This document shows, piece after piece, positions 27,356 through 64,000 of a DNA stretch of 64,000 nucleotides (positions within the stretch are counted from its first letter, which is position 1; each line of letters begins with the position of its first letter). Source of the DNA: an uncultured Phycisphaerales bacterium (GTDB lineage: Bacteria > Planctomycetota > B15-G4 > CAYZWU01). The translations under genes were made by a program, and so were the position numbers. The stretch covers positions 19,826 through 83,825 of the forward strand of contig CAZIUL010000003.1 of the NCBI GenBank assembly GCA_964542475.1. The letters are read 5' to 3'. The notes below the pieces were generated by a model. It was not told the DNA's origin. It ran no database searches and worked only from the letters and a program-made list of their open reading frames with translations.

Positions 27356-28137
27356 AAGCCCGGGATCCCCAGCCTGCCCAAAAGGCCGCCTCTGCTTTTT
27401 TCCCGCGCCTCCGGCACTTCCATTGCTTCCCCCGCGAGGATTTTTGCGGGCCTGTTGATGAACACCTCTTCCGCCTCAGCCCGCCCCATAACCTTTTCGA
27501 CCGCATCGAACGCCGCGCTCAGGCCGGGGGGACGGCGATCAGCGGCATGCGCGTCACTTGCTACCAGATGCGCCATTCCCATTTCCATGAGCCGGTGTGC
27601 CGTCTTGTGTCGCCCGCGGCCGGACTCGCCGGCCAGGGAAGCTGCCGTGATCTGGATAAGCGTGCCCGAAGATACGATCTCCATCAGCCTTTCCGGGGCC
27701 GACTGGATCTCGCGGTTACGTTCCGGGTGCGTGACTATCGGAACCACGCCTTCAACCTGAAGGGAAAAGAGATGGTGGTCCAGGCCTTGCGGAAGTATGT
27801 CGTCGGGCAGCTCCAGAAGAAGGTACCGACCCGCATCACCAAGGGTCATCACGCTGCCCTCTTTCAAAAACCGCACCAGGTCGGCGTGAATGTGGATATC
27901 AGCCCCGGGTTTCACGTCGACACGAATCCCCTCCTCCTTGAGGGCGCCTTGCAGCCTCTTGACTCCATCGAGCACCTGGTCGCGGGTGACATGGAAGACG
28001 CCGTTTAACATGTGAGGAGTGGCCGTGATTGTTTTTGTTCCGTCCTCGGCAGCCATCGCGCACATCTCGACGGATTCATCCATGCTTTTCGGCCCGTCAT
28101 CGAGCCCCGGCAGAACGTGCATGTGCAGGTCAATCAC
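27352..28137 (-). CDS. cpsB: PHP-family protein-tyrosine phosphatase (CpsB/Wzb/YwqE-type)
   Basis: MIDLHMHVLPGLDDGP at the N-terminus is diagnostic for CpsB. The start overlaps the upstream wzc stop (ATGA). Confidence 0.75.
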   Translation of the reverse strand: MIDLHMHVLPGLDDGPKSMDESVEMCAMAAEDGTKTITATPHMLNGVFHVTRDQVLDGVKRLQGALKEEGIRVDVKPGADIHIHADLVRFLKEGSVMTLGDAGRYLLLELPDDILPQGLDHHLFSLQVEGVVPIVTHPERNREIQSAPERLMEIVSSGTLIQITAASLAGESGRGRHKTAHRLMEMGMAHLVASDAHAADRRPPGLSAAFDAVEKVMGRAEAEEVFINRPAKILAGEAMEVPEAREKSRGGLLGRLGIPGF

Positions 28138-30366: not shown

Positions 30367-30438
30367 TCTCTCTTCACTGCTGCAGTTCCTTCTTGCAAGT
30401 ATAACCGTCGGGCGGTTGGCTTTGCCCGTTGCATGCCG

Positions 30439-31559
30439 CTAGTTGGCAAGATCCACGTTGTACCCGACGTGGAAGAGCCGCTTGAAAAAATCCAACGTCT
30501 CGATAAAAATCTTCTTCGAGGTTGTCTGGCGCACATCTATGATGTCGTTTGACTTGAGAAAAATGTTCGGTTCTTGGCCGCTCGAGATGGCCACCAAATC
30601 CAGGGGGATCACAACCTCTTCATCCGCAAGCCGCCTTTTCAGCACGCAGCTCCTGGGAGACGCTTCGTATTCCATCAACCCCTCTGCCAAAGCAACCCCG
30701 TCAAGAACGGTGGTCGGTCTTTTCAGCGCAAAACCGCCCGGCTTGCGCACAAAGCCCATAACGTAGAAAAGCGGGGCTTCGGGCACAAAGACCACGTCGT
30801 CATCTCTCAGCACCACGTTGAGCTCCATGTCGCCGCGCTCCAGCAGCTCCACGAGGTCGACGACAATAACTTCCTTTTTTGTATCACTGACAAGCGGGCC
30901 GGCAAGCCCGGCTCCCGCTCCTGTATCGAGAGCAGGGTCTGCCGCGCCTTCATCCGCGGCCTTTTTGTCCGCGTGCCTGGGGCGGAGAACATAAAGCACA
31001 TACCCGGCGCGTTCGTCGAGACCGCCCGCAAGAGCGATCGCGTCCAGCAGGGTTGTGACGTTCTGCCTGAGGTTGAACCGGCCGGGCGCCTCGAGGGCTC
31101 CTATGACCGCGATCGTTTTGCTGCGAAACTCCTTCACAACAACGCTAACACGCGGTGTCTTGATGAGCCCGCCGGCTATCAAGCGCGACACGATGTCCTG
31201 CTCGATTTCCTCAACGGTTTTGTTCTTTGCTTCGATCGTGCCCAGCAGGGGCAAGGTAATGATGCCGCTTTCCGAGATCCTCGGATCAATGGTCATGGGC
31301 TCGTCGCGCACCATCCACTCGAAGATGCTCACGGAGAGCACATCATCGGTGCCAACCCTGTAGTCTTCTTCCTGTTCCCGGATCCCGTCGAGAGTCTCCT
31401 TCGCCAGCCTCCTGCTCAACGCGTCTGTCGGCGAGATGCGCCTTGTTTTAACAGCCGTGTTAACAATGTTGACTTCATCCGAAGCGCAGCCGGCATGTAC
31501 AAGGACAACCAGTGCGATAAAGATGTGTGATGCCCGGAGTGTTCTTCGCTGAAGCATTT
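30439..31559 (-). CDS. wza: Outer-membrane polysaccharide export protein (Wza-like, Poly_export + SLBB)
   Basis: There is a signal peptide ending VHAGCAS (possible lipoprotein), and the size and position match Wza upstream of wzc. I chose the start at MLQRR (~31559). Confidence 0.65.
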
Positions 31560-42500: not shown

Positions 42501-42689
42501 AAACTCACCCCCCAGGATGTACGGTTTTTTTTCCAGTGACGGGGGCAGATCAACAGGCGAGTCCGGGATGACCGGTAATATGAACTCCTTGCTCGGGGGA
42601 AGCTCCTTTTCCCGCGTTATCATCTGTATCACGGTGATAATGACTACCGCCAGCGCGGAAAGAACGATTATATAGATGAAGCGTTTCAT
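39558..42689 (-). CDS. Large membrane-anchored periplasmic protein (1043 aa), possibly with LptC/LptA (OstA_N)-like repeats
   Basis: It has a single N-terminal TM (IYIIVLSALAVVIITVI). Segments such as NDLICRKSRFDSTERITISREGIVVAGDGMELDLESSEFVLQKNIRI resemble the Lpt beta-jellyroll motif. It overlaps the lptD start by 14 bp. Confidence 0.4.
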   Translation of the reverse strand: MKRFIYIIVLSALAVVIITVIQMITREKELPPSKEFILPVIPDSPVDLPPSLEKKPYILGGEFPRYELIEDKQGNEIRVQTGHLSIGKLTPAGAKKFEGEEISFVFYDKSRHEKPLEERIIAKGTSDRAEFYSPAPVEGLDMRTEFKPDFFVLKDNIKINAFDPRTGKQSFSVRTNDLICRKSRFDSTERITISREGIVVAGDGMELDLESSEFVLQKNIRIEAENLELSDLSGFREDAAPEKKKEKEAKGRESSSPIYISAAGPLLLKMPGKLGSASSNNGSSGRDDDGVEKSPSRLEIKNDVVVTREKQSFSCDVLVAEFIESSQGEIEIKEMHGASEANRTTLNGEGYTVYCDELTFRREKDKDVFILTGTPEIDNVSMPLFSSLSRDESLSLMKLDCGERIEIESFESEDASKDRFIVNMDGGVLMDEKENPGPHLLKADTVSFLVTKDEKKEGGSFTGKSNGDGTALLVKEFKANGNVTGHIQEFDLACSSFSYNYTEAADGYISSLVLSDPEESRLEGEQMTIRSAVINIELYPDVTEISANDTFVCTSEVEELPRIRSFSLFDTAAEETEEAEKTGEAEPMSGAGQASGGRVEINGCGEFRLLGIEDPAGPKQTLSIKNGDFHIRMLRGGIRVLDITGNKAFSLQVIDGALSSLEVRGDGNLDCPELGFSSEGDFLSLGNRDSGSMEFHTEADDCSASISFIDPGLPDPCTIHAGDIDVYTGDDVRLIARRKADAVIPAAMFERKKDGGDNSESGQSLMGEGGLETVYASADTIEIERPEGAEHIYVSGKGSSSVRSGEKGPRSTCTDFNYGSESEVLSLVGTAESPAQVSIPTALDPTILDSVTSTRVDMNLGDSTAFIDRGGTVVLNQYDQGSSTWSRISIDCVDEIRLRNDVLEFKGPVSLVHTSGAQEGKRTLDCDLLLVYFLQSPLLSKPSAMDYESYRAMIKNGGEPVPEEDGNMIKRIEAMDNVLLNIAMKSKSYSIDCNRLSWDFLKDEIQTDGLGEPVNIVIDGSTFIRGKTVIVRPVMEEIAIVSY

Positions 42690-43944: not shown

Positions 43945-45661
43945 AGGAACAGTCATGAACCCTCTCGAAAAGAACGAAACGTTTCGCCCCAGGCCGGGGT
44001 CCCTTGTGCTTGTCATCATGGACGGAGTTGGCGAAGGCCCTGAAAACGAGGGAAACGCCGTCCGGCTGGCACACACGCCCACGCTCGACAGGATCCGGGA
44101 GAAACACCCCCGCATGCTGCTTTCGGCTCACGGACCGGCCGTGGGGATGCCGTCCGGGGACGACATGGGCAACTCGGAGGTGGGACACAACGCGCTGGGT
44201 GCCGGCCGCATCTTCGACCAGGGGGCCAAGCTTGTGAGCTCAGCCATCGAAGACCGCAGCCTGTTCGACGAAGAGACATGGAAAGCGCTCATGGACAGGT
44301 GCCTGTCCGGCAAGGGCGCGCTCCACCTGATCGGGCTGCTCTCCGACGGAAACGTGCACAGCCACATCGACCACCTGTTCGCCCTGATCAGGCAGGCGGA
44401 CAAGGCGGGCGTGAAAACCGTTTTCGTCCACACTCTGCTGGACGGCAGGGATGTTCCCGAGGACTCGGCCCTGGAGTACATCCGGCCGCTCGAGGCGCTT
44501 CTCGAAAAGGTTCGCGCAAAGTCCGGGCGGAACTACTGCATCGCTTCGGGCGGGGGCAGGATGAACGTTACAATGGACCGCTACTTTGCGGACTGGTCCG
44601 TTGTGAAGCGCGGCTGGGATGCTCATGTGCACGGAAAGGGAAGGGCTTTTGAGAGCGCGGAAGAGGCGATCCAGGCCTCTCGTGATGAGCAGGCAGGCAT
44701 TGGGGACCAGTTCCATTCCGAGTTTGTTGTTGTGCGAGACGGCAAGCCGAAGGGCACGATCCGGGACGGGGACGCGGTTGTTTTCTTCAACTTCAGGGGT
44801 GACAGGGCGATCGAGATCTCAATGGCTTTCGAGAACGAGGAGTTCAACGGATTCGACCGCGGGCAAAGGCCGGATGTCATGTACGCCGGCATGATGCAGT
44901 ACGACGGTGACCTGAAGCTGCCCAAGCGGTTCCTCGTTCCTCCGCCGGCAATAGACCGCACGGTCGGCGAGTACCTGGCAAAAAGCGGGGTGCGCCAGCT
45001 TGCGCTCTCCGAAACCCAAAAATACGGCCATGTCACCTACTTCTGGAACGGCAACCGGAGCGGCAAGTTCGACGACGAGCTGGAGACCTACATCGAAATC
45101 CCTTCCGATATCATTCCGTTCGAGCAGCGGCCGTGGATGAAGGCCGCGGAAATAACCGATGCCCTGCTGAAAGAGCTCGACACCGGCAGATACCCGTTCG
45201 CCAGGGTAAACCTCGCAAACGGCGACATGGTGGGGCACACCGGAGTCCTCCGGGCCACCAGGATCGGAGTCGAAGCGGTCGACCTTGCGCTCGAGCGGAT
45301 CATCAACAAGGTCGAGGCCCTGAAAGGGGTCGTACTGGTCACCGCGGACCACGGCAATGCGGACGAGATGTTCGAGCTGGACAAAAAAACCGGCAAGGTA
45401 AAAACGGAAAAAAGCGGACACCCCAAGGTCAGAACCAGCCACACCCTGAACCCGGTCCCCTTCATCATCGTGGACCCGGCGTTCCAGAACGAATACCGCT
45501 TCAACCGATCGATAGAAGAACCGGGCCTCGGCAACGTGGCTTCCACCATCCTCTTTTTCCTGGGGTACAAACCGCCGGAGGGGTATGAACCGGCATTGGT
45601 GGGAAATTCGGAATTCACCGTGCCCGTTCGAGACGGATTACCTGCTCAACCTCCTCGATGA
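43945..45661 (+). CDS. gpmI: 2,3-bisphosphoglycerate-independent phosphoglycerate mutase
   Basis: LVIMDGVGEGPENEGNAVRLAHTPTLD is the iPGM N-terminal signature. The product is ~570 aa. Confidence 0.9.
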
Positions 45662-48203
45662 TCTCCCAGCGGAAAATGATCCATTGGTCCTGGCGCTGGT
45701 CGATAATCTGCAGCTTGGCCCACAGATCGGTGTTCCTGTCGATGCTGTGGATCACGTAAACATGGCCTTTTACAGCGGGAGCCTCATCGGCTTTCTTGTA
45801 GGAATGTCCGTCTGCAACAGCCACGCTGTCGAAGTCGGCCGCACCGAGATCCCAGATCGAGCTCATGCCGAACAGATCGATCTCCGGACCGCCGTTACCG
45901 AACGCGATGTCCCAGTCGTTCTTGACCAGTTCGCGATCATCGCGCGTGGCGTACTCGAAGCTGAACGTTGAGACCCTGTAATCATCCGGCAGGTTGAGCA
46001 TGGACGCGTGGGAACGGCCGAGAAGTGCATCGACATGAACCTCTTTGCCGATGTTTTCGGCAAGGGAGGCTGCAAGGTTCCCGGCTTCACGATCGAGGTC
46101 AGCCAGTATCCGGCCCTCTAGAAGAGCAACCTTTTCCGCCGACTTCTCCAGGATAGACCAGTCGAATGTTACGCCATGCTCGGTTGATGTTTCGGCAGCG
46201 ACACTCTCGATGAAATTCGGCTCGTGTGCGTTGTAGGCGTACCTGATCGTGACGGGTTTCTCCTGCCAGGAACCCTGGTTGGACCGGGCCACAATGGCGA
46301 GCTTGGCCCACCCGCCGTAGCGCGTCCTGAGAATGAAAACATCGTCATAAGGATCCCGGGAATCGCCGTCAGCTGTCCATCCTAATGCGACCGTTTCCGG
46401 ATCGACAGACACGATGGCATCGAAAAGTTCATCCACACCGCAGCGACTGATCGCGCTGTCCCTGTCTCTGCCCCACTCCAGGTTGTTAATGCCCCCCTGT
46501 GCCTGCAAAGTCACGGAGCTGATGCCGCCGGCGCAGCCGGCGAAATATAGATCCCCTTTGTCATCCGGCACGATCTTGCCGAGGTCTATCGAGTAGGCCT
46601 GCTGGTAATGGATTCGGAACTCTCCTTTGCGGATCCCTTTCGGAGAAAGGTTGACAACAGCGCTTCCCGGAGCGGTTCGCCTTCCATGCTTGTCCACACA
46701 AACGGTACTGTACAAGAGGAAACGCTTCCCGCTTATTCGCCCATCGCGCGCCAATCCGTTCTTCACGGTTAAAAACCTCGCTTCGCTACCCACAGCATCT
46801 GTCACTTTTACCCTATCCGCCTTGTACCCTTCCGGTGCATCCACCGTGACAACAACGCAGCCCGCCTTTTTCTCCGCCACAACCTTCGGCCTGAGATCAA
46901 AATAGGCGGCGTCCGGGTTGGCCTCGTACTCGACAAGCACCTCCACTTGCGGAACAGGCTTCCAGGTGCATCTCGCCACACCGCCACCGCGAAGGTAAAC
47001 ATGAAACGGGATATGGGGTGGAATTTGTTTCCCCCAGCCGGAATATTGAGCGCCCAGTTGATTGGGAAGAGGAGTCGCGTGAACCCCGAAACAGTCGGCA
47101 AAAGATGCGGCTGACGAGCCGCCGTAGGTCCCGGTCAAGGTGATGTCGCCACCGCTGTCCACATGCTTTCCGGTCAAAAAATCGAAAGACCTCTTTCCCT
47201 TCGCAGACCGATCGAGCTCAAAAGATCCCGTGACCACGCCGCCGCAATCCGTTGTTCCATCCACTGTCGCCGGGAGGCTCTCGCACATGTTCGCTGCGAT
47301 GCCGGTGATCCTGTAAACATAGCGGCTCCCGGGCGCGACATCGTCATCCCTGAAAGGCCCTTTCCCAGGGGTGTCCAAGATATGGAAGGGTCCAGCCGCG
47401 CCGTCACTGCGCTCGACGCGATAGGACGAAAAAATGTCTGACGCCTCGAAATGGACCTCTATCCGTTTGCCGGTCCCGACACAGAAAAGGTTTCGAGGCG
47501 CGGGCAAAACGCTCTGCGTACTCGTCAGGGCCGTGTAGAACCGCACGCCCACCGGCGCAGACGTGCTTATGACCTGCACCCAGGCGCACCGCCCGAGATC
47601 GGTGTGAACCATGTGCCAGGGAGCGCTGTAAATCCGCTGCGCCAGGCCGGCCATTTCATGGTCGAGCCTGGAACCGTCAAGGAACACGACCTCATCGTTC
47701 CTGACCACCAGATCGGGCGCTGAGCCCGAACCGGACCGGATCGCATTGGTCACTCCGCCCGTGTCGAGGTCTAGAAACAACCCCTCGGGGATCACCTCCA
47801 CAGCGGATATGTATGACGATCCCGGTACACCTGTCGAGAGGCGAAGGATCTCCCGGGAGATGGCTGGGAGATCCCCGAAATCGGCGACAAGCTCCCGCAG
47901 AAGAGACGCGGCCTTCTTTTCGTTTCCCTGAAGGCGTTCGCACCGGATGAGCCCGGCCAATGCCTTGGCCTTCAGGATCCGCGGGGCGTTTCGATCCTTC
48001 CATATCTTTAGAAAGAGCCTTGCTGCTTCTTTTGGTTTGCGTTGACTGTCAAGCAGAAGCTCCGCGTCGAGAAAAAGAGTATCGAGCTCATCCTGATCGG
48101 ATGTGGGCGCCTTAGGAGTGTCTACCGCCTGGCAGGGTGCGCACTGAGCGGTCGGGCCGAAGAAAACGAACATGCCGAGCAAGAGTAAGATCAAGATCTT
48201 CAT
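45615..48203 (-). CDS. Hypothetical large secreted protein (862 aa)
   Basis: It has a signal peptide (MKILILLLLGMFVFFGPTAQC) and no recognisable catalytic motif. It lies downstream of, and co-oriented with, the two-component system. Confidence 0.5.
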   Translation of the reverse strand: MKILILLLLGMFVFFGPTAQCAPCQAVDTPKAPTSDQDELDTLFLDAELLLDSQRKPKEAARLFLKIWKDRNAPRILKAKALAGLIRCERLQGNEKKAASLLRELVADFGDLPAISREILRLSTGVPGSSYISAVEVIPEGLFLDLDTGGVTNAIRSGSGSAPDLVVRNDEVVFLDGSRLDHEMAGLAQRIYSAPWHMVHTDLGRCAWVQVISTSAPVGVRFYTALTSTQSVLPAPRNLFCVGTGKRIEVHFEASDIFSSYRVERSDGAAGPFHILDTPGKGPFRDDDVAPGSRYVYRITGIAANMCESLPATVDGTTDCGGVVTGSFELDRSAKGKRSFDFLTGKHVDSGGDITLTGTYGGSSAASFADCFGVHATPLPNQLGAQYSGWGKQIPPHIPFHVYLRGGGVARCTWKPVPQVEVLVEYEANPDAAYFDLRPKVVAEKKAGCVVVTVDAPEGYKADRVKVTDAVGSEARFLTVKNGLARDGRISGKRFLLYSTVCVDKHGRRTAPGSAVVNLSPKGIRKGEFRIHYQQAYSIDLGKIVPDDKGDLYFAGCAGGISSVTLQAQGGINNLEWGRDRDSAISRCGVDELFDAIVSVDPETVALGWTADGDSRDPYDDVFILRTRYGGWAKLAIVARSNQGSWQEKPVTIRYAYNAHEPNFIESVAAETSTEHGVTFDWSILEKSAEKVALLEGRILADLDREAGNLAASLAENIGKEVHVDALLGRSHASMLNLPDDYRVSTFSFEYATRDDRELVKNDWDIAFGNGGPEIDLFGMSSIWDLGAADFDSVAVADGHSYKKADEAPAVKGHVYVIHSIDRNTDLWAKLQIIDQRQDQWIIFRWEIIEEVEQVIRLERAR

Positions 48204-50941: not shown

Positions 50942-53900
50942 TTGAAACGTCAACTGATGATCGCAGCGCTTTTTTTTATCTTTGCTTGGGGAGCTGTCTT
51001 TGCCCGGGAACAGAACCGGGAAGAGACAAAAACCGCGCAAGCACAAGAAACACAAGAAAAACCCGGGGATAAGGCGGCGGTGAAGGTGGATGAGGAAGCG
51101 ACCGGGAAAAAAACAGGTGAAGATGAAGGAGAAAAGGAAGAAGAAGAGGATAAAAGCCTCCTCAAGGCATCCACCTTTTCCGGGCTCAAATTCCGCTCCA
51201 TCGGGCCTGCCCTCATGTCCGGGAGGATCAGCGACATCGCGGTTCATCCGAAAAAGCACCATCACTGGTGGATCGCGGTGGCTTCGGGCGGCGTGTGGAA
51301 GACAACGAACGCGGGCACAACGTGGAAACCGGTGTTTGACAACGAAGGCTCCTACTCGATCGGCTGCGTGACGGTTGACCGCAACAACCCGCACATCGTG
51401 TGGGTGGGCACGGGGGAGAACAACAGCCAGCGTAGCGTCTCTTTCGGGGATGGTGTGTACAAGTCGACGAACGGGGGGAACTCCTGGAAAAACATGGGCC
51501 TGAAGGAGTCCGAGCACATCGCGAAGATCGTGGTGGATCCTCGGGATTCCGATGTGGTGTACGTCGCAGCCCAGGGCCCGCTCTGGGCGCCCGGCGGCGA
51601 CCGGGGGCTTTACAAGACCACGGACGGCGGAACGACCTGGAACCTGGCGCTCGAGATCAGCGAGAACACCGGCGTGACAGACGTGGTCATGGATCCGCGC
51701 GACCCGGATGTGCTCTATGCCGCATCGTACCAGCGGCGGCGCCACGTATGGACTCTTATAAACGGCGGCCCCGAGTCCGCGATCCACAAGACTACCGACG
51801 GAGGAAAGAGCTGGACAAAACTCGGCAGCGGCCTTCCAGGCGGTGATGTGGGCCGCATAGGGCTTGCCATCTCGCCGGTTGATGCGGATGTGCTTTTCGC
51901 CATCATCGAGGCGGCAGGTGATGCGAGCGGTTTCTTTCGCTCGACCAACAGGGGAGCGACCTGGGTGAAGCGCTCAGGTCACGTGAGTGTCAGTGCCCAG
52001 TACTACCAGGAGATCGTGCCCGATCCTGTGGATGTGAACCGAGTCTACTCGCTGAATACCCGCACCAAGGTCACGGACGACGGGGGGAAGACATGGACCA
52101 ATGTGGGAGGGTCGCGCAAGCACGTTGACGACCACGCGCTCTGGATCGACCCGGACGACACTGACCACCTCGTCATGGGGTGCGACGGCGGCTTGTACGA
52201 AAGCTTCGACCGCAGCGTAAGCTGGCGCTTCGTTCCCAACCTTCCCCTGACGCAGTTCTACAGGGTCAGCGTGGACAACAGCTTTCCGTTTTACTACGTG
52301 TACGGCGGAACCCAGGACAACTCCACACAGGGCGGCCCCTCCAGGACCCGCCGCTCCGGGGGGATCGTCAACTCCGACTGGTTCATCACCGTCGGAGGCG
52401 ACGGGTTCGAGACACAGATCGACCCGGAGGACCCCAACATCGTCTACTCCCAGTCGCAGTACGGCGTACTTGCCCGGTATGACAGGCTTACAGGCGAAAG
52501 GATCAACATCAAGCCCATGGCGGGGCCGGACGAAGAGCCGCTCCACTGGAACTGGGATTCCCCGCTCATCATCAGCCCGCATTTGCACACGAGGCTCTAC
52601 TTCGGCGCAAACAGGCTGTTTCGAAGCGATGACAGGGGCGACTCCTGGAGGGCTGTGAGCGGCAACCTCACGCGGCAAATCGACAGGAACAAGCTCGAGA
52701 TCATGGGAAAGATCCAGCCCCTGGACGCGGTTGCCAAGCACGACTCCACGTCGATCTTCGGAAACCTCGTGTACATCTGCGAATCGCCCCTGGTCGAGGG
52801 GCTGATCTACGCGGGCACGGACGACGGCCTGATCCAGGTCACCGAGGACAACGGAAAGAGCTGGCGGCGCGAGGACTCCTTTGCGAGCGTGCCGGATATG
52901 ACCTACGTGAGCAGGATCGAGGCATCGCTCCACGACGCGGACACAGTGTTCGCAGCGTTCGACAACCACAAGAACGGGGATTTCAAGCCGTACGTGGTGA
53001 AGAGCACGGACAGGGGAAGAAGCTGGACCTCCATTGCGGGAGACCTTCCCGAGCGGGGGCCGGTCCTGTCTCTGGCAGAGGACCACGCGGACAACGGACG
53101 GCTCCTGTTCGCAGGCACCGAGTTCGGCGTGTTCTTCACGATCAACAGCGGTGAAAACTGGATCCGGCTCAAGGGCGGGCTTCCAACCATCGCGATCAGG
53201 GACATGGAGATCCAGCGCAGGGAGAACGACCTTGTGCTCGGCACATTCGGCCGAAGTTTTTACATACTGGACGACTACACCCCGCTCAGACAGGTCACGG
53301 AGGAAAGCCTCGAACACGAGGCAATGCTGTTTCCTGTCGTGAAAAACACCTGGATGTACATACCTTCCAGGTCAAAGGCCGGGTCGCAGGGCGGCTCGTT
53401 CTACACGGCTTCCAACCCGCCTTTCGGAGCGGTTTTCACCTGCTACATCAAGGAAAGCTACGAGAGCCTGAAGCAGAAGCGTAAAAAGAAGGAAAAAGAG
53501 TCGCTTAAGGACTCCGGCGATGTTTACTACCCCACACTGGAGGAGCTCCGCGCTGAGAAGCGGGAGGAAAAAACCAGCCTCGTCCTGTGCGTGCGCGATT
53601 CAGCGGGAGAGCTGGTCCGGCGCATTAACGGGCCCGCGTCAGCAGGGTTCCATCGCGTGGCATGGGACCTCAGGTACCCGTCATCAAGGCCCGGGGGTCG
53701 CGGCAGCGGGCCGCTGGTATTGCCCGGAGAATACACCGTGACCATCGAAAAGAAGGCTGATGGAGAGCTCACGCTGCTATGCGGGCCTGAACGGTTCGAG
53801 ATCAAAATGCTGCAAACAGCTTCGCTCCCCGCCGAGGACCGTGAGGAGGCGCTTGCCTTTCAGATGAAGGCGGAAGATCTCCAGAGGGCTGTGCTGGGTG

Positions 53901-54313
53901 CGGACAGGGTTCTGCAGGAAACAAAGAGCCGCGTTGAAGAGATCAAAAAAGCGATCTTTGCAACGACCGGAGCCGACCAGTCGCTGGGCAAACGCGCGCG
54001 CGATATCGAGGTACGCCTCATGGATCTCGAGATGGAGCTTTCGGGTGATTCGCTCAAGCGGTCCCTTGACGAGGCCACGCTGCCATCCATCCAGAGCCGT
54101 GTGCGCCAGATCGTGGGCACGCACAGCAACTCAACATCCGCCATCACGCAGACCAGCCGCGACAACTATCAGATCGCTGGTAAAGCTTTCGAAAGAGCGC
54201 TTGAAAGGCTGCGAGTCCTGGTCGAGCAAGACCTGAAAAAGCTCGAGAATGAGCTCGATGCAAAGGGCGCGCCCTGGACCCCGGGGCGCATCCCGCACTG
54301 GACAATCGAATAG
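50942..54313 (+). CDS. Secreted BNR/Asp-box repeat (sortilin/VPS10-like) protein with an acidic low-complexity N-terminal region
   Basis: It has a signal peptide and at least nine S/T-x-D/N-x-G-x-S/T-W Asp-boxes (STNGGNSW, TTDGGTTW, TTDGGKSW, TDDGGKTW, TEDNGKSW, STDRGRSW ...). The gene is 1123 aa. Confidence 0.7.
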   Translation: MKRQLMIAALFFIFAWGAVFAREQNREETKTAQAQETQEKPGDKAAVKVDEEATGKKTGEDEGEKEEEEDKSLLKASTFSGLKFRSIGPALMSGRISDIAVHPKKHHHWWIAVASGGVWKTTNAGTTWKPVFDNEGSYSIGCVTVDRNNPHIVWVGTGENNSQRSVSFGDGVYKSTNGGNSWKNMGLKESEHIAKIVVDPRDSDVVYVAAQGPLWAPGGDRGLYKTTDGGTTWNLALEISENTGVTDVVMDPRDPDVLYAASYQRRRHVWTLINGGPESAIHKTTDGGKSWTKLGSGLPGGDVGRIGLAISPVDADVLFAIIEAAGDASGFFRSTNRGATWVKRSGHVSVSAQYYQEIVPDPVDVNRVYSLNTRTKVTDDGGKTWTNVGGSRKHVDDHALWIDPDDTDHLVMGCDGGLYESFDRSVSWRFVPNLPLTQFYRVSVDNSFPFYYVYGGTQDNSTQGGPSRTRRSGGIVNSDWFITVGGDGFETQIDPEDPNIVYSQSQYGVLARYDRLTGERINIKPMAGPDEEPLHWNWDSPLIISPHLHTRLYFGANRLFRSDDRGDSWRAVSGNLTRQIDRNKLEIMGKIQPLDAVAKHDSTSIFGNLVYICESPLVEGLIYAGTDDGLIQVTEDNGKSWRREDSFASVPDMTYVSRIEASLHDADTVFAAFDNHKNGDFKPYVVKSTDRGRSWTSIAGDLPERGPVLSLAEDHADNGRLLFAGTEFGVFFTINSGENWIRLKGGLPTIAIRDMEIQRRENDLVLGTFGRSFYILDDYTPLRQVTEESLEHEAMLFPVVKNTWMYIPSRSKAGSQGGSFYTASNPPFGAVFTCYIKESYESLKQKRKKKEKESLKDSGDVYYPTLEELRAEKREEKTSLVLCVRDSAGELVRRINGPASAGFHRVAWDLRYPSSRPGGRGSGPLVLPGEYTVTIEKKADGELTLLCGPERFEIKMLQTASLPAEDREEALAFQMKAEDLQRAVLGADRVLQETKSRVEEIKKAIFATTGADQSLGKRARDIEVRLMDLEMELSGDSLKRSLDEATLPSIQSRVRQIVGTHSNSTSAITQTSRDNYQIAGKAFERALERLRVLVEQDLKKLENELDAKGAPWTPGRIPHWTIE

Positions 54314-54457: not shown

Positions 54458-55446
54458 TCACTGCCCCTCTGCCCGCATGAACTCCAGGAAAAGCTCCACC
54501 TCGAACCTGGACCCTATCACAAGGGGTGTGTACTGGTGCAGCTTTTCCGGTTTCTTGTCCAGGATATTTCCGTGTCCGTCGATTGCCATGCCCCCTGCCC
54601 GCTCGATGATGAATGCCATCGGGTTTGCCTCGTAAACAAGCCTCAGCCTGCCTCGCGGGAACTGTGGATATGCGGGATACAGGAACACGCCGCCCTTCAG
54701 AAGGTTCCTGTGAAAGTCCGCCACAAACGAGCCGATGTACCGGCCTGTATAGCGCCTCTCCTTGAAGTTTTTCAGGTACGAGACATACCGCTTGATCGCC
54801 GGCTCCCAGCCATCGAAGTTCGCCTCGTTCACCGCGTAGATCGATCCGTGATCCGGAGCTCTCATGTCAGGATGTGAAAGGATGAACTCGCCCACGCTTG
54901 GATCGAGCGTAAAGCCGCTCACGCCGTTTCCGGTAGTGTACACAAGCATTGTGCTCGACCCGTAAACAATGTAACCGGCGCACACGAGGCTGTTGCCCCG
55001 CTGGAGAAAATCTTCTTCCGAACCGCTCTCGTTGTGGGAAACCGCCCGGTACACGCCGAAAATCGTGCCTATGGCCACGTTCACGTCGATGTTGCTCGAT
55101 CCGTCTAGAGGATCGAAAACAACAGCATACCTGCCCTTGGGGTACTCGTCCGGAACATGGATGATGCCTTCCGCCTCTTCCGATGCCATTGCGCAGATCG
55201 TGCCTGTGTGCGCGAGAGCCTGGATCATCTTCTTGTTGGCGAAAACATCGAGCTTCTGCTGCTCCTCGCCGTGGACGTTCACGGAATGGGCTTTGCCGAC
55301 GATGTTTGCTATGCCGGCCTTGTTGACCTCCCGGCTGATGACTTTTGCGGCGAACGCGATCTGGTTGAAGATCATGGTCAAATCGCCGGTGGCTTTCGGG
55401 TTCTTGCGCTGTTCTTCCAGCACGAAGCTGTTGAGGTTGGTAACGC
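54458..55446 (-). CDS. fbp: Fructose-1,6-bisphosphatase class 1
   Basis: YAVVFDPLDGSSNIDVNVAIGTIFGVY is the class 1 FBPase signature. I chose the start at MQKGV (55446). Confidence 0.85.
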
Positions 55447-55764
55447 CTTTCTGCATGCTGCTCTCCGTCTTTTTTTTACTCCTTGTCGGATCCTCTCCTC
55501 CTGTTTCGGCATCTTTCCGGAAGATCGGGGGCAATCTGTAAAAAAAACCGTTGCCGGGCTGCCGCTTTTCGTGATCGGTTGCGGCCAGGCAGGGGCGCAC
55601 TGCACGGTACGGGCTCGATCATTTTGGTTCTGCCATGATCCGGTCTCGGTTAGTACACTGTTTTTGAATGAATCCCGTTGCGTTGAAAGGTAAATGAAGG
55701 TACGGTTTGGCGAAAACCTCTTGTCCACTGACGCTCTTCACAACCCGAAAAAGGGACAGAACAA

Positions 55765-56235
55765 ATGGCTGATGACTATTTCATGCGCCTCGCAATCGAC
55801 AAGGCCAAGGAAGGCGTTTTGAAAGGCAACGCGCCTTTCGGTGCCTGCATTGTAAAAGACGACGAGATCATAGTGTGTGAGCACAACAGGGTCTGGGGCG
55901 ACACGGATATCACAGCCCATGCCGAGATCGTGGCGATCCGGGAGGCCTGCAAAAAACTCGGCTCGATCGATCTGGGGGGGATGGTCCTTTACGCAACGTG
56001 CGAGCCGTGCCCCATGTGCTTCAGCGCGGCTCACTGGGCCGGGATAACGAAGATCGTTTTTGGCGCGAGAATCAAGGACGCGAAAAAGATGAAGTTCCGC
56101 GAACTGAACATCTCCAACGAAAAGATGATCGAAACGGCACGCAGCAAGGTCGAATCTGTGGGGCCGTTCATGCGCCAGGAGAACCTCGACCTGATGGACT
56201 ACTGGAACGACATACCAGGGACCAAGAGCTACTAA
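55765..56235 (+). CDS. Nucleoside/nucleotide deaminase (CDA/TadA/guanine-deaminase family)
   Basis: HAEIVAI...CEPCPMC is the zinc-binding deaminase motif. The gene is 156 aa. Confidence 0.75.
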   Translation: MADDYFMRLAIDKAKEGVLKGNAPFGACIVKDDEIIVCEHNRVWGDTDITAHAEIVAIREACKKLGSIDLGGMVLYATCEPCPMCFSAAHWAGITKIVFGARIKDAKKMKFRELNISNEKMIETARSKVESVGPFMRQENLDLMDYWNDIPGTKSY

Positions 56236-57485
56236 ACCTCGCTTTTCATTGCCTGGTCGATGTCGCGTATCAGGTCGTCGACACTTTCCACTCCAACCGA
56301 GATCCTTATGAGGCCGGGTGTGATTCCCACCTGTTTCAGAATGTGGCTGTCCACATCCGAGTGAGTCATTGTCATCGGATGTTCGATCAGCGTTTCGGTG
56401 CCGCCCAAACTCACGGCAAGTTTTGCAAGCTTCACGGAGTTCAGTATTTTGAACGCGGCCTTTTTGCCTCCCTTGACCTCGAACGCGATGAGCGATCCCG
56501 TACCGGTGCACTGTTTTTTGTAGATATCGTGCTGGATATCACCCTGTCGGAGAAGCCCGGGGAAATAAACCTTTTTCACCATCGGCTGATCCGACAGCCA
56601 ACCAGCCAGAAGCAGTGACGACCGCGCCTGCTGCTCCATCCTGATCTTTAATGTCTCGAGTGAACGAAGCATGAGCCACGACGCAAACGGAGGGGCCATG
56701 GTCCCAAGGATCGTCCGGTATGCCTTGACCTGGCTCACCAGCTCTTTTCGCCCCAGGATCGCCCCCGCGATAAGGTCCGAGTGACCCCCGATAAACTTGG
56801 TGGCCGAGTAAATCGAAAGGTCGGCTCCAAGCTTCAGGGGTGTCTGGAAGACCGGCCCGAGAAAGGTGTTGTCCACGACGAAATGGCAGGGCCTGTCCTT
56901 TTTTGACAGCCTGTCCGCCATCTTCCTCGCTGCGGACAGGTCGGTGAGTTTCATGTTGGGGTTGGCCGGCGTCTCCACGAAAAGCATTTGCGCCTTCCTT
57001 ATGCCCTCCTTCCTGATCCGCTCGCAAAACCGGCTTCCCGCGTCGATCGGTATTGCTTTTATCTTGAACCTGGGAAGGATGTTGTTGAAGAGGAAATCGG
57101 TCCCCCCGTAAACAGGAACCGAGTAAACCAGGGTGTCCCCGGGCATGAGCAGTGAAAGGCACACCGTGGAGATGGCAGCCATGCCGCTGGCAAAGGCAGC
57201 GCTTTCCTCGGCGCCCTCCCAGATGCTGAGCCTCTCCTCGAGAATCTCGAGAACCGGATTGTTCAGGCGCGAGTAAATCAGGCCCTGAGGATGCTTTTTG
57301 GTGCTCTTCTTCATGCCGTAGGCAATCTTGAAGAACTCTTCCCCATCCTCGGCGCTTGGAAACGCAAATGTGGATGTCTGAAAAATCGGTGGCTTTACCG
57401 CGCCTTCCGACCAGAATGCGTTGTACCCATGGCTCATCATGAGCGACCAGGGCTTGAACTTCTTCCAATCCTTCGAATCGGGCAT
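56232..57485 (-). CDS. PLP-dependent transsulfuration-family enzyme (cystathionine gamma-synthase/beta-lyase / methionine gamma-lyase type)
   Basis: YSATKFIGGHSD is the PLP-lysine motif. The start at MPDSK is preceded by the RBS gggagg; the ORF-track start (MGGGTM) translates that RBS. Confidence 0.8.
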   Translation of the reverse strand: MPDSKDWKKFKPWSLMMSHGYNAFWSEGAVKPPIFQTSTFAFPSAEDGEEFFKIAYGMKKSTKKHPQGLIYSRLNNPVLEILEERLSIWEGAEESAAFASGMAAISTVCLSLLMPGDTLVYSVPVYGGTDFLFNNILPRFKIKAIPIDAGSRFCERIRKEGIRKAQMLFVETPANPNMKLTDLSAARKMADRLSKKDRPCHFVVDNTFLGPVFQTPLKLGADLSIYSATKFIGGHSDLIAGAILGRKELVSQVKAYRTILGTMAPPFASWLMLRSLETLKIRMEQQARSSLLLAGWLSDQPMVKKVYFPGLLRQGDIQHDIYKKQCTGTGSLIAFEVKGGKKAAFKILNSVKLAKLAVSLGGTETLIEHPMTMTHSDVDSHILKQVGITPGLIRISVGVESVDDLIRDIDQAMKSEV

Positions 57486-57525
57486 GGTTCCGCCTCCCAA
57501 CGTTATTGAATTGCAAGGGCGGGAA

Positions 57526-57545
57526 GGGCGAAAGATTTTTCGCCC
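57526..57545. repeat. Repeat family B hairpin (GGGCGAAagatttTTCGCCC)
   Basis: It lies between the thioredoxin stop and the start of the PLP enzyme gene. Confidence 0.6.
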
Positions 57546-57558
57546 CCACAGGCCTTCT

Positions 57559-57873
57559 TCACGCCCTGCTCACCAGGTCGTCGAGATCCGTGTCCCTTTG
57601 CACACCCACCGACCTTGCGACCTCTTTTCCCTTGGAGAACAGTATAAGGGTCGGGATGCTGGTAATGCCGAACTTGGTGGCCAGGGCGGTTTCCTTTTCC
57701 ACGTCTATCTTGGCGACCAGCGCCTTGTCCTCGTTCTCGGCGCTCCAGCCCTCCAGAACCAGGCCCTGGTGCTTGCATGGTCCGCACCAATCCGCCCAAA
57801 AATCAACGAGCACGGGCTTGTCGTGGTTATCGATGGTGCTCTGAAAATCAGCTTCCGTGAGTTCCTTGGCCAT
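57559..57873 (-). CDS. trxA: Thioredoxin
   Basis: WADWCGPCK is the active site. The product is 104 aa from MAKEL. Confidence 0.9.
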   Translation of the reverse strand: MAKELTEADFQSTIDNHDKPVLVDFWADWCGPCKHQGLVLEGWSAENEDKALVAKIDVEKETALATKFGITSIPTLILFSKGKEVARSVGVQRDTDLDDLVSRA

Positions 57874-58326
57874 GTTGTCCTCTCCTTTACATTTCATTCA
57901 TTCGAATACGATCATTCTCGGTTTCCGGCCGCGGGGAATGGATGCGCTCCGGCGACTGTTGAATCCCGCACGCCGAAACATCGTCCATGATCATTTTCTC
58001 CTCTTCTCTCATTTTTCAACGAACTCTTCAAGAGATTTCCGCCGAACCTTGCGATCCTTGTCATTACCCTGTCAGCTCCGAAGACTATTAAGTAGATGGA
58101 GAAAGAATCAGCAGGGGATGCTGAATGAAAAATATGTTTCCTCTTCGCGGGGAACTTTTCGTATCTATATGAATCAAAAAAAGACCAATTATTCCGGACA
58201 GCCGGGCATCCGCTTTGCCCGGGCTTGTATCCTGCCTTGCGAGGAGCGCCCTCTTGTACGCATGGCATCGAAAAACATCCACACGTCAAATAAGCAATAA
58301 GGTTTCCAATCAGGGAGGACTGAAAA

Positions 58327-61300
58327 TGATCCCAGCGTCAACCCATTTTCGTATTCTTGCGGTCCTGCTGTTTTTCGCCGCGGCAACAACCGGCTCGGCT
58401 TCGATCCCGGCCGCACCCGCCTCAGGAGCGGAGCTGCCGGACACGGCGCCTTCGACCGAGCTGTCCTCCGCGGAAGATGCGCTCCTGGAAGGAAACCTGG
58501 AAGAAGCGGTCGGGCTGCTTCAAAAGGCCGCCCGCGGCCCGGACCGGGAAAAAGCGCTGTATCGCCTCGGCTCGTGCCTGCTGCACACCGGGCGCGCTCA
58601 AGAAGCGCTGACAGCTCTCGATTCATGCCTCGCGGAATACAGGGGCGGAACCTTTTTCAACAAGGTGCGCTTTTTAAAGGCCCGGGCCCTGGATGTGCTC
58701 AGGCGCTACGAGGATGCGTCCCTGATCTACGGGGAAGAGATCTCGCGCCTGCTCTCCAAGGAAAGGAAAGAAGAGGTCGCCCGTTTCTACATAAAGTACG
58801 CCGGATCCCTGGCTGATCCCGAGCGCGAGGGCGGGCCCGAATACAAAAAAGCGGTGGAGCTCTATCGGCTCGCTCTCGATCTCGAAGTGCCGGAGCCGCT
58901 CGATCAGGACCTCCGCCTGAAGATCGCGGATCTGTTCCACGAGATGAAGCAGTACCAGGAGGAGGACGATGCCCTGAGCAGGTTCAAGATACTCTACCCG
59001 GACAGCAACATGAAAGACGAGGTGGATTATCGCATTGGGGACGCCAGGCTGGAGCGGGGACGGCTCCCCGAAGCCCGCAACGCTTTCCGTGGATTTTTGC
59101 GCGACCATCCTGAATCCACGAGGGTGCCGGACGCACACCGCGGAATAGCCCGGACATACCACATGCCGGAACCGCTCAACGAACAGGAGCTCACCCTTGG
59201 AATCAAGGCGCTGGAAGACTTTCTCGCGATCGCCCCGAAAAGCGAGAAGGCGCCCTGGGTCCATTACGATGTGGGAAAAGCGTACTGCCATCTTGGCCGG
59301 TACGACGAGGCGGTGGCCGCCTACGAGAAGCTGCTGACCAAATACGAGGGCAAGCCCGGAATCGATGTGCTGCCCGATGTCCGCTTTCATATGGGAGACG
59401 CGCTATTGAAACAACGCCGCTTCTCGAAAGCGCTTTCCGCGTTCAACACCTTTCTCGTGGAACACCCCTCCCATCACCTCTGGGACGATGCTCAGCGCCT
59501 CATTGTTGATACCGAGTTCGCCAGGTGCATCGATCTCATGAAGGAAAAAAAGTACGGTGAAGCCCGGGATGCGTTCGGGACCTTCTGCATGAAACACCCC
59601 TTGGACAGCAGGGCCCCTGATGCCTACTTCGCGCTCGGCGTTCTCGAAAAGGACAGGAAAAACTTCAAGGCCGCTGTCAGCGACTGGAAGAGGCTCGTGT
59701 CCAAGTATCCGAAGACTCACCGGGGCTCGGAGGCCCAGTTCATGATCGGCCGCCTTTACGAGACCGAGCTTATGGATCTCGAAGCCGCGCTCGAAGCCTA
59801 CAAAAATGTGAGCGGGGATTACCGGGCCGAGGCCAACATGCGCATCGCCGCCATGAAAGCCAAATCGCTGAAAGTGGTCATCGAGCGGGCTTTCACCACA
59901 TCCGAGCCGGCCAAGGTGAAGATCACCACAAGGAACATCGAATCGCTCAGCTTCAGGGCGTACAAGGTGAACCTCGAGGATTACTTCCTGAAGCACCTGA
60001 ACACGAGCAGGGTTGAAAGCCTTGACATCGACCTGATCCAGCCGGACGAGAAATGGGAATCCGCAATAGAGAAGTACAAGGAGTACGCAGAGATCACGAG
60101 GGAGGAAGAGCTTCCCTTCGAGGAGCCAGGCGCGTACATCCTGAACGTGAGCGACAAGGAGAGATCGGCAACCGTGCTCGCGCTGATCACCGACCTTCAG
60201 ATGATCGTGAAGTCGGGGCGCGAGGACGTGCTCGTGTTCGTTGAGAACGTCCGAACTCAGGAGCCTCTCGATGGCGCCCGAATACTCGTAAGCGACGGGT
60301 GTAAAATGCTATTCCAGGGAAAGACCGGTGAAGACGGCGTGTTCCTGAAAGCGGACGAGAGCCTTAAGACGCTGAGCGCATTGAAGGTGCTTGTCGCTGC
60401 CGACAACGGTTTCGCATCGAACGAGCTCGGCCTTGCGGACATCTCGGTTGCAAAGGGATTAACCCCCAAGGCGTACCTCTTCACGGACAGGACCGTCTAC
60501 CGCCCGGGCAGCGAGGTAAGGCTGAAAGGGTTCGTGCGCGAGGCGGAAAAGGGCTGCTACTTCTTCGAAAACGATGCGTCCTACTCGCTTATCCTGCTGA
60601 GTCCGGCCGGTGCGGAAATTCTCATTCGCAAGGTGACGCTCGATCATTTCGGTGCGTTCGACACAAAGGTCGCCATCGATTCATCCGCGCCCACCGGCAG
60701 CTACAGGTTCATGCTCAAAGCGCCGACCGGCTGGTCGCAGCAGGTCACGTTTCCGGTGATGAAGTACACGAAGCCCAAAGCGGAGATCACGCTGGACATT
60801 CCAAGGGATGTCTTCTACCCGGGCGAAACGATCGAGGGAACCTTCAAGGTTCTCTACAGCTACGGAGAACCGGTGGTTGACAAGATGCTCCGTTACGGCT
60901 ACGGAACAGGCGTTACGATGGAAGAGGAGACCGATGAGAACGGGGAGGTGGATTTCAGCATAGATTCGCGCGATTTCGCTGAAAGCGGGGTTTACCCGCT
61001 CGTGGCGGAACTGCCCGCTGAGAACGCCACGCTCCTGAAGACCTTTCATTTTTCCACAACCGGGTTCAGCCTGAAAGCGGTGCCTTCGAGAGAGGTGCTG
61101 CTCGCGGGCGAGACCCTTACCGTGGAGGTTAAGGCGTCTGATCCGGGAGCAAAGCCGTGCGAGGCGGAAGCGGAGCTCCGGGTGATCCGGCTCGTGGAAG
61201 AGGAAGGCATGACATTCGAGCGCGAGATCGAGCGGATCCCCGTTGCCATAACAAAAGACAGCGGAAGCGGAACGGCAAAGGTTACACTCGACAAAGGCGG

Positions 61301-64000
61301 CTCCTACAGGTTCCGCGCCGCGGCCGCGGACCGCTTCGGCAACATGATCACTGCGGATTGCGAGGCCTTTGTCTCGGGCGAAAGCGACGAGAAGAAGCTC
61401 CGTATCTTCATGGACGACGTGGCGCTCGACGCCGGCACATCCGTTGAGGCGGGGGTTCACCTGCGGTGCCCTGAAAACCTCGTGCTCCTGACCCGGGAAG
61501 GGGAGCGGATCTTCGGATACGAAATAAGGCGCCTCCATGAGGGCATGAACAAGATCGACATCGATATAAAAGATCAGCTCGCGCCGAACTTCACCTATGC
61601 GGCCGCAGTCATGGACAGTCACCATTTTCACAAGGCCCGGATCGATTTGAAAGTCAGGTCCTCCCTGAAGGTCGAGCTCGAGCCCGAAAAGAAAGTGGCC
61701 CTTCCGGGCGAAAAGGTCGGCCTGAACGTGAAGATCACCGACAGGACAGGAAAGCCGGTTAAGGGCCAGGTGGCTGTTGCCTTGGTGGATTCGGCGCTGC
61801 TTTCCAGCTTTCCCGACGAGTCAACCCCGATCCACGAGTTCTTCTTCGGTAGGGAGCGCAAGGGCAGGATGAAGACGGATAGCTCCTGCACATTCGCGTT
61901 CGAGGCGAAAACCGTGACCATTGACAGGGCGGTTATCGAGGAGATGGGCCGGCGGGAGAGAGGCCTGATGGCGGGAATGGCGCTCGATTTTGAAGCGGAT
62001 GAAGACAGCCTGGTCATGGAGGAGTTCGAATCGATTCTCGACGCGCCGAATGTCGCCGGATTCGCAAAGCTGCTGGAAACACAAAGCCATGAGTTGCGCC
62101 CCGGTCCGGGAGGGCCGACATCTCCGGGGCCGGCTAGACCAAGAGGAGCAACAACCGGCGGGATGGCGCGGAAGAGAAGCTCCTTTGCCGTCGGGAAAGA
62201 GGATTTGGATCAGGAAGTTCTGCAACAACTGAAATCGCTCGGGTACAACGGTGGAGGAGGCGCCAGGCACAAGGATGCCAAACTAAACAAGTCGATCGGT
62301 TTAGGCGGCGGCGCAGGCGGTACGTTTCGCGGGCGGTTTAATGGCAAGGCGGTAAGCGGATCCGCCGGTTTTCTTGCGGGTAGAGGCCGGAAGGAAAGCC
62401 AAGGGTCAGCCGTGCCGGATGAAACGCGCAAGCGCTTCCTGGAGACCGCTTTCTGGAATCCTTCCGTCTTCACGGGGGCTGACGGCAGTGCAACGATCGA
62501 GATCGAGCTTCCCGACAACATCACGAAATGGACGGTGCTCGCAAAAGGGCTCGACAGGGATGCTGCCGGCGGCCAGGGTATGGCAGAGCTGAGTGTTCGC
62601 AAGAAGCTGTTCGCTTTTCTCGAATGCCCGCAGCTTCTCGTTGAAGGGGATACCGCCATCTTCAGGGCGAATGTCGTGAACAGCTCGGAAGAAAAAGCTG
62701 AGGCCGGGGTGACCCTAGAGCTCAAGGGCGCATGCGGATCCAAGGAGCTGACCGATGAACTTCAAATCGAGCCCGGCGCAAAAGGGATCATCGAGTTCGA
62801 GATAAAAGCGGAGAAACCGGGCACGATCAATGCCGCGCTCGCTGTTGAAGCCAGCGGCTTGAAAGATTCTCTCAAAAGCTCGATCGAGGTGATTCCTTAT
62901 AGCATTCCCGTGTCAGCGGGAATGAGCGGAAGCGAGGATGCGCCCGCCGTGATAAAGGTGTCCCTCCCCGAGGGAAAAAAGTACACGCACAAAACCATGG
63001 AAATCGTGCTGGGGCCCACCTTTTCCGATTTTCTGCTGCACCTGGCGACCAGGCCCGGTTACTCCTGCTGCCTGCCTACCGTTGCCGACACGGCTGACAG
63101 GCTACTCGTCAACCTGTACGCGCTCGACTATTCGAGACGATGCGGGAACACGGAGCAGCTACGCTCTTCGAACATCGAGCACAGGATCGAGGCTAGCCTG
63201 GCAGCTCTTATTCTCGCCCAGAAAAAATCAGGAGCGTTCCCATGGATCAGCGATAAGTATGATTCCCTGCTCGCAACCGGGCAGGCCCTGAAAGCAATGT
63301 CTTTGGCATCGCGACTCGGGTTCAACGTGCCGGAGAAGCACCGCGTGAAAGCCGCGGACTGGATAAAAAACCTTCAGCGCACCCTGGAGGGCGCTGAGAA
63401 GATCTTTTGCATCCACGCCCTTTCCTTCGAGGACAAGCCGGATTTCACCGAGCTCAACAGGTTCTATCGCACGAGAAACAGCCTGAGCAACAGCGAGCTC
63501 GCCATGCTGTCCCTGGCGTTTCTCGGAGGGGATCATGCGGACAAGGCGTCTTCTCTCGTGCGGATCCTGCTCGAAAGGGGCGCTTTCAGCGGGCAGTCGA
63601 GCGGTTCGCGATCGAAGGAGAAGATCGTCCAGACAAGCGCCCCCTGGATCGAAGACGACCTGTTCAGCCTCTCTGTTTGTGTTCAGGCTCTCTCGCTCAC
63701 AGAGCCCGGCCACCCGTCTCTCGAGAAGGGGATCAAGGAGCTCATGAAGAGCCTGACGTGTAAATGGCACTCAAGCCATGCCACATCCGCTGCGGCCGGG
63801 GCGCTTTCCGAGTACCTTTCGGGCGCTTCCCAGGAGCAGGCCAACTACGAGCTGGATGTGCTGGTAAACGGAACGCTCGTCAAATCGCTGAAGGTGAACG
63901 CGCCCTCGCCGGTGGAAAGGATCTACGTGCCCGAGGAGCTTATCAGCGACCGGGATAACAACGTGAAGTTCGCGTTCAACGGCGCCGGAACCTATGCCTG
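58327..64000 (+). CDS. Alpha-2-macroglobulin family protein with an N-terminal TPR array (partial; the ORF continues past the window end)
   Basis: The RBS gggagga lies 7 nt upstream and there is a signal peptide. TPR-like repeats are present (GRYDEAVAAYEKLL ...). The A2M_N_2 motif is RKRFLETAFWNPSVFTGADGSATIEIELPDNITKWTV. The TED region is YALDY...ILAQKKSGAFPW. The thioester position reads YSCCLPT rather than CGEQ. The frame is open for ~1890 codons to the window end, which is why it is missing from the supplied ORF track. Confidence 0.75.

Follow-up and report, generated by a model that had tools for sequence, protein, structure and literature searches.

A thioester-less alpha-2-macroglobulin-type protein of about 2,640 residues with tetratricopeptide repeats, encoded by an uncultured Phycisphaerales bacterium and its relatives

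The 64,000-nucleotide stretch of DNA analysed here, hereafter the window, comes from an uncultured Phycisphaerales bacterium (assembly GCA_964542475.1, contig CAZIUL010000003.1, positions 19,826 to 83,825) and ends inside a large gene on its plus strand. Positions 58326-64000 are the first 1891 codons of this single gene, whose product of ~2,640 residues is exported through the Sec pathway, is not a lipoprotein, and joins an array of tetratricopeptide repeats (TPRs) to the body of an alpha-2-macroglobulin (A2M) devoid of the thioester motif CxEQ. This architecture is distinct and widespread. What is new is the architectural variant; already known are the A2M kind itself and the proteins, to which public databases give generic or wrong names.

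The start codon, read from the sequence, is the ATG at 58326-58328. An earlier reading of the stretch, made from its letters without database searches (the sequence-only reading), had placed the start one base further on, at 58327, from where translation is full of stops. The ribosome-binding site cited there, GGGAGGA, is present (58313-58319, plus strand) and resembles a Shine-Dalgarno sequence, although it lies 6 rather than 7 nucleotides 5' of the ATG. The uninterrupted frame of more than 1890 codons holds once it is read from 58326: 1891 codons are open up to the window end at 64000, the last full codon ending at 63998. Going upstream, the frame meets its first stop at 58170; two TTG codons are the sole alternative starts between this stop and the ATG, and the first 60 codons after the ATG contain no other start. 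The GC content of codon positions 1, 2 and 3 is 0.60, 0.42 and 0.74, respectively, in DNA of ~58% GC, which is a typical coding signature, and an open frame of this length at such a composition would far exceed chance. The best homologue is 54% identical across 98% of the length. Judged by homologue length, the gene continues for ~752 codons past the window, which thus holds its 5' 72%.

The gene is missing from the list of open reading frames (ORFs) that accompanied the stretch, because that list omits ORFs that leave it. The minus-strand ORFs that are listed for the region had been dismissed as antisense artefacts. The three that had been named as examples exist, and in two of them (58674-59390 and 60681-61631) the GC content of the first codon position mirrors that of the third position in the sense frame, as is expected of shadow ORFs; the third (62210-62743) lacks this mirrored composition and is judged an artefact solely from its antisense position inside a conserved gene. 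An Rfam scan of 57500-64000 gave no match, and a promoter and terminator scan of the upstream spacer returned weak consensus matches only.

The proposed fusion of TPRs and an A2M is borne out by profile searches. Counted against curated Pfam cutoffs (gathering scores), TPR_6, TPR_16, TPR_2 and YfiO exceed threshold at aa ~50-510, as do MG2, MG3, A2M_BRD and A2M further along the protein. Features are given below in residues, with plus-strand positions of the window in brackets. The N-terminus indicates a Sec signal rather than a lipoprotein signal: residues 1 to ~25 (58326-58400), which read MIPASTHFR-ILAVLLFFAAATTG-SA followed by S, form a predicted signal peptide whose n-region is charged and whose hydrophobic core spans aa 10-20 (Kyte-Doolittle 2.99), the cleavage site being placed heuristically. 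The first cysteine is at aa 84, so there is no lipobox cysteine in the N-terminus. A solenoid of 25 helices, or ~12 repeats, of the BamD/CpoB (TPR_6) type follows at aa 45-511 (58458-59858). This part matches the solved structures of YbgF (2xev) and BamD, and a Foldseek comparison between the modelled N-terminus and PDB entries found only generic long TPR superhelices such as OGT, APC/C and SPY. Behind the solenoid lie two beta-sandwiches (aa 514-630 and aa 634-702; 59865-60431), which correspond to the NIE/MG1 domains at the N-terminus of bacterial A2Ms. Pfam also matches bMG3 to aa 621-685, with a score below the cutoff.

The A2M body, which makes up ~70% of the protein, begins with an array of macroglobulin (MG) domains (60468-61445) that comprises MG2 at aa 715-802 (58.1 bits), MG3 at aa 813-884 (25.4 bits), both above cutoff, and a conserved segment at aa 885-1040, which has no Pfam match and is presumed to consist of beta domains. 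In the region of the array, the family hidden Markov model (HMM) matches E. coli YfaS in one 600-residue stretch with 220 bits. The bait-region domain (A2M_BRD or MG6, PF07703) occupies aa 1041-1159 (61446-61802; 35.3-38.3 bits against a cutoff of 22.7), and the A2M domain proper (MG7, PF00207) aa 1374-1464 (62445-62717; 60.9 bits against a cutoff of 21). The latter opens with the motif FLETAFW...PDNITKW, is matched to human A2M by phmmer at 2.5e-9, and contains most of the motif quoted by the sequence-only reading, FLETAFWNPSVFTGADGSATIEIELPDNITKW, which is present at aa 1371-1402. That reading had called it an A2M_N_2 motif; the FLETAFW...ITKW sequence is there, but it belongs to PF00207 and not to PF07703, the model formerly named A2M_N_2.

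The last 433 residues (aa 1459-1891) have no match to the Pfam TED model. A TED region, as had been proposed, is nonetheless supported by both profile and structure comparison. In an AlphaFold model of aa 1360-1891 (predicted local distance difference test score, pLDDT, 82.2), beta-sandwiches are followed by a toroid of 12-13 helices and then by further beta strands. Foldseek aligns this model over ~560-650 columns with C5, C3, C4, Salmonella A2M, human A2M, CD109, A2ML1 and ECAM (E 2e-21 to 6e-18). A profile of 21 family members matches ECAM/YfhM (2e-44), Salmonella A2M, human A2M and CD109, and the same profile runs through the MG7-CUB-TED portion of TEP1, of the C-terminal ECAM fragment 4ziu and of the C3 alpha chain. 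By these models and profiles, a CUB domain with an inserted TED toroid is present despite the silent Pfam model. Its predicted parts are CUB-like strands that make up the first half of the CUB, at aa ~1473-1562 (62742-63011; model strands 114-203, within the Foldseek alignment that spans MG7-CUB-TED of C3, C5 and A2M), an alpha/alpha toroid without thioester at aa ~1569-1835 (63030-63830; model helices 210-476, pLDDT mostly >90), and strands that return to CUB at aa ~1840-1887 (63843-63986; model strands 481-528), after which the protein goes on past the window.

The motif CxEQ is found nowhere in the 1891 residues. The sequence-only reading had noted this correctly and had placed YSCCLPT, which is present at aa 1579-1585, at the thioester position. 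This placement needs amending. In MAFFT and independent HMM alignments with E. coli YfhM and YfaS and the relative P0025, the CLEQ of YfhM (YPYGCLEQT) and of P0025 (FPYGCLEQT) aligns to T1585-V-A-D1588, directly after YSCCLP, and YfaS shows GVIN at the same position. The degenerate site thus reads YSCCLP-TVAD (aa 1579-1588, 63060-63089), and by these alignments the Cys-Cys pair is an insertion upstream of the site and not the thioester cysteine. Could the two adjacent cysteines nevertheless supply a reactive bond, making the protein a covalent trap by other chemistry? They lie 3-4 residues before the thioester position, and the window protein and its relatives P0001, P0003, P0004 and P0021 carry CCLP (the form in the window protein), CCPLP, GCLP and RCLP variants. 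However, the pair is limited to a few close relatives. It is missing from most of the family and from the syntenic orthologue P0002 (locus L001), which has KRYFP; there is no Gln partner, and the cysteines fall in an insertion of the HMM alignment, with TVAD at CLEQ. We regard such chemistry as very improbable, and a Cys-Cys "alternative thioester" was rejected for want of conservation.

Among 128 full-length family members, CxEQ is found at the TED site in three or four (P0025, P0185, P0085 and possibly P0173). The family probably began with a thioester and then lost it almost entirely. The distant members P0025 (L008:1753-9777), P0185 and P0085 keep the canonical motif (FPYGCLEQ or GGGCTEQT) and could represent the covalent form from which the family descends. 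Just downstream of P0025 is a gene for a small TPR protein.

The combination of TPRs and A2M is shared by many proteins. A word-index search returned 26 proteins that agree in Pfam content and measure 2,554-3,292 aa. A phmmer search with aa 400-1200, a segment that spans the junction between the TPR and MG parts, gave 8,414 matches, 680 of them at E<=1e-30. The best 150 of these matches all have E<1e-115, are mostly 2,550-2,900 aa long and have the junction at the same place. With clustering at 50% identity, the architecture is common to at least 150 clusters, and the median family length is 2,674 aa. An N-terminal TPR array on an A2M had been described as uncommon, which is true relative to characterised A2Ms but not of this family. 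A search with five close sequences found three Phycisphaerales metagenome-assembled genomes at 46-52% identity, and the members that carry names belong to Planctomycetota, Phycisphaerales, Planctomycetia and Verrucomicrobia. A search of one literature library for TPR and macroglobulin in Planctomycetes, or for this architecture, found no relevant paper. These results also bear on the notion that an error of assembly or sequencing fused two neighbouring genes, one for a TPR protein and one for an A2M, or that the gene is a decaying pseudogene. The same junction at the same position in the best 150 independent representatives and in 26 proteins from different sources, 1891 codons without a stop, and conservation even across the junction make an artefact of either kind next to impossible.

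The public labels of the relatives read "tetratricopeptide repeat protein", "alpha-2-macroglobulin" or "outer membrane protein assembly factor BamD". The last of these raises the question of whether the protein is a true BamD or CpoB/YbgF orthologue. Formally, the NCBIfam models TIGR02795 (ybgF equivalog; 128.8 bits, cutoff 90.1) and TIGR03302 (BamD; 82.3, cutoff 81.4) are both exceeded, and relatives bear the name BamD in NCBI. These labels arise because repeat scores summed over the TPRs, here over 3-4 repeat stretches of a ~2,640-aa protein, pass the cutoffs. Like CpoB (YbgF) and BamD, the protein has repeats of the TPR_6 subtype. Those two, of which BamD is a lipoprotein, measure ~250 aa, contain 3-5 repeats and have dedicated partners, whereas here ~12 repeats form one module of a giant A2M-type protein. 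It further lacks a lipobox, has no tol-pal or bam genes among its neighbours in the window, and is mostly A2M body. Orthology to BamD or CpoB is ruled out by this architecture, and we give it virtually no credence. P0017, P0125 and other relatives of ~2,600-2,800 aa that are named BamD in NCBI probably represent systematic mis-annotation in genomes of the Planctomycetes-Verrucomicrobia-Chlamydiae (PVC) group. Such 2,600-aa proteins, tagged "BamD", "YbgF-like" or "TPR protein" by public pipelines, can mislead anyone who looks for BamD or CpoB in Planctomycetes and Verrucomicrobia.

The part of the protein that lies beyond the window is known from homologues, which are 2593-2663 aa long and run 751-752 aa past the window end. 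Positions 1892-2006 of the family profile match YfhM aa 1424-1555, its MG8/RBD part (independent E-value 8.4e-6), so that, from sequence comparison, the homologues probably carry an MG8-like domain after the window end. The rest of their C-terminus shows weak Pfam TPR matches and a tail resembling bMG3/CarboxypepD_reg. The C-terminal module was located in P0002 (L001:15398-17929) and in the family alignment columns after aa 1891. When aa 40-720 of the window protein were compared by hhalign with the family columns past the window end, 490 columns aligned with a probability of 99.96% (E 8.9e-39). The C-terminal ~500 aa of the family, a TPR block plus two beta-sandwiches with the consensus RNV..VYRVDLMKLYL..GAYLVV, are thus paralogous to aa ~80-710 of the window protein. 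Since the end modules align at this significance, the whole protein can be written as [TPR + two beta-sandwiches] - A2M core - [TPR + two beta-sandwiches].

Bacterial A2Ms have been divided into two types. Type I proteins have the CxEQ motif, are lipoproteins, and adjoin pbpC, the gene for PBP1c, whereas Type II proteins (MagD/YfaS) lack CxEQ, keep the bait, have a plain signal peptide and usually belong to a six-gene operon with stabilising products (PMC5764988, PMC3735191). The family HMM scores YfaS at 301.8 bits (E 4.6e-93) and YfhM at 153.2 bits, and by this sequence measure the A2M core is nearest to the thioester-less Type II A2Ms. With these it shares the MG array, the bait-region domain, the MG7-CUB-TED body and the absence of a CxEQ thioester; like MagD, it has a signal peptide without a lipobox Cys (PMC3735191). 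Unlike the A2M-only proteins of Type II, which measure ~1,500-1,650 aa, it is ~1,000 aa longer, has TPR-MG modules at both ends and a far longer bait, and is hosted by Planctomycetota and Verrucomicrobiota instead of Proteobacteria; no magABCEF/yfaATQP genes (DUF2138, DUF1175, DUF2300, DUF2135) were found in the window or in related loci. The assignment to the "YfaS type" made by the sequence-only reading consequently applies to the A2M core and the lost thioester, but not to operon, size or architecture.

The differences from Type I (E. coli ECAM/YfhM, Salmonella Sa-A2M) are TVAD in place of CLEQ, the missing lipobox and the extra TPR modules. No pbpC occurs in the 64-kb window, which does not include the downstream side of the gene, or in eight related contexts. 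The expectation that a bacterial A2M should pair with pbpC, voiced in the sequence-only reading, is valid for Type I only (PMC5764988) and fails for all relatives surveyed here. Eukaryotic A2M, complement C3-C5, TEP1 and CD109 resemble the protein in MG7-CUB-TED topology (Foldseek E to 2e-21) and in the MG7 motif FxETWxW...PDxITxW; it differs from them in lacking the thioester as well as anaphylatoxin and C345C domains, in the bacterial type of its N-terminal MG domains, and in its TPR arms.

The baits of A2Ms lie between BRD and MG7 (PMC5764988). In the window protein this interval contains a hypervariable Gly/Arg/Lys-rich stretch, aa 1201-1368 (61926-62429), with 30 G, 18 A and 15 R among its 168 residues. 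Compared with 20 family members, it shows an identity of only 0.10-0.13 and 36-67% gaps, whereas the flanking regions stay at 0.3-0.45. By position and variability, we consider this stretch a candidate bait. Its length of 168 aa far exceeds that of known A2M baits.

Taken together, the absence of CxEQ, the hypervariable insert at the bait position, the affinity to Type II and the precedent of MagD lead us to propose, with moderate confidence, that this Sec-exported, thioester-less A2M body with its variable insert and flanking TPR-MG modules may act as a bait-triggered, non-covalent protease trap in the periplasm. In MagD, non-covalent trapping of the protease after bait cleavage has been demonstrated experimentally, although the way in which this thioester-less A2M retains its protease has yet to be explained (PMC5764988). 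The site of action would be the periplasm or the cell surface. By analogy with MagD, a protease would cut the exposed variable bait, upon which the MG/CUB/TED body would rearrange and the protease would be held sterically, without a covalent bond. Speculatively, the two TPR-MG arms could stand in for the thioester of Type I or for the Mag partners of Type II; they might either add walls or lids to a monomeric cage or use their peptide-binding TPR grooves to anchor the trap to partners in the envelope.

A number of points weigh against this proposal. Protease trapping is deduced from homology and the bait-like variable region only. MagD needs MagB and other partners for stability, and none were found here. 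The candidate bait is unusually long and Gly-rich and could be a mere disordered linker. The role of the TPR arms and their contacts with the core are a matter of speculation. The last 752 aa, and the genes downstream in the source genome, lie outside the window, the C-terminal module being known from homologues, and the taxonomic range is drawn from a few members with names.

The main competitor of the trap is an envelope scaffold or adaptor, in which the A2M body would be a rigid spacer without inhibitor chemistry and the BamD/CpoB-type TPR arms would bind envelope machines such as peptidoglycan synthases, outer-membrane assembly factors or secretion factors. A rigid spacer would not readily account for a hypervariable insert that every member retains at precisely the position of the bait, or for the conservation of the complete MG7-CUB-TED conformational machinery. 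Moreover, the thioester-less Type II A2Ms, which of all characterised proteins are the nearest relatives, trap proteases (PMC5764988), and an LpoB-like gene next to P0002 in L001 is not kept in other loci. We therefore consider a scaffold possible but rather unlikely. A bolder version of the trap, still more doubtful in our view, would have the family constitute a third class of bacterial A2Ms. Its members would be self-sufficient, monomeric, thioester-less cages whose paralogous TPR-MG arms close over or hold the protease, replacing both the tether of Type I and the Mag complex of Type II, and would serve as a standard envelope defence of Planctomycetota and Verrucomicrobiota.

The gene appears to stand alone, without operon partners nearby. 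Its upstream neighbours, all on the opposite strand, encode a thioredoxin (57559-57897), a Cys/Met pyridoxal phosphate (PLP) enzyme (56232-57500) and an FBPase (54458-55600). L001, the locus that encodes P0002, is syntenic, with identities of 78% for the PLP enzyme, 63% for the thioredoxin and 51% for the A2M-like protein. Nine related loci were fetched, which represent the eight distinct contexts mentioned above. No neighbour, be it pbpC, a mag gene or any other, is conserved across these eight; the divergent thioredoxin gene alone recurs, in the closest clade only, which reflects local synteny. The gene tables of the eight contexts, L001 included, list neither pbpC nor a mag/yfa partner. Likewise, tblastn with E. 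coli YfaA, YfaT, YfaQ, YfaP and PbpC found nothing in the window or in L001-L005 (no match for the four Yfa proteins at E<0.39), although very remote homologues could escape such a search. The genes downstream of P0002, on the minus strand of L001 (18156-22422), encode an LpoB-like lipoprotein, a 411-aa protein of unknown kind and a transglutaminase-like/DUF3108 protein of 714 aa. These genes may also adjoin the window end; the arrangement is not kept in more distant loci.

Elsewhere the window contains a polysaccharide-synthesis neighbourhood at 23618-27355 (minus strand), 28134-30536 (minus strand) and 17086-18729 (plus strand), with genes for a 1245-aa Wzy_C (O-antigen ligase-like) protein with C-terminal TPRs, a tyrosine-kinase-type co-polymerase (GNVR/AAA_31) and a Polysacc_synt flippase. 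Four long minus-strand ORFs, at 39558-42689, 37091-39571, 45615-48203 and 11642-13486 (1043, 826, 862 and 614 aa, respectively), have no Pfam match at E<=1e-5 (E<=1e-3 for 45615-48203). The product of a 1123-aa ORF at 50942-54313 (plus strand) combines Sortilin-Vps10/BNR repeats with a FlgD_ig-like domain and is probably a secreted beta-propeller protein. The segment 2001-4000 has a GC content of 0.45, compared with 0.55-0.62 elsewhere in the window, and could be foreign or non-coding DNA.

With the thioester lost in ~97% of its members, two conserved TPR-MG arms gained and no operon partners needed, the family amounts to a natural experiment on thioester-less trapping. It should be of moderate interest to researchers of A2Ms and of PVC envelopes, and its members may serve in the defence of the PVC cell envelope, a structure about which little is understood.

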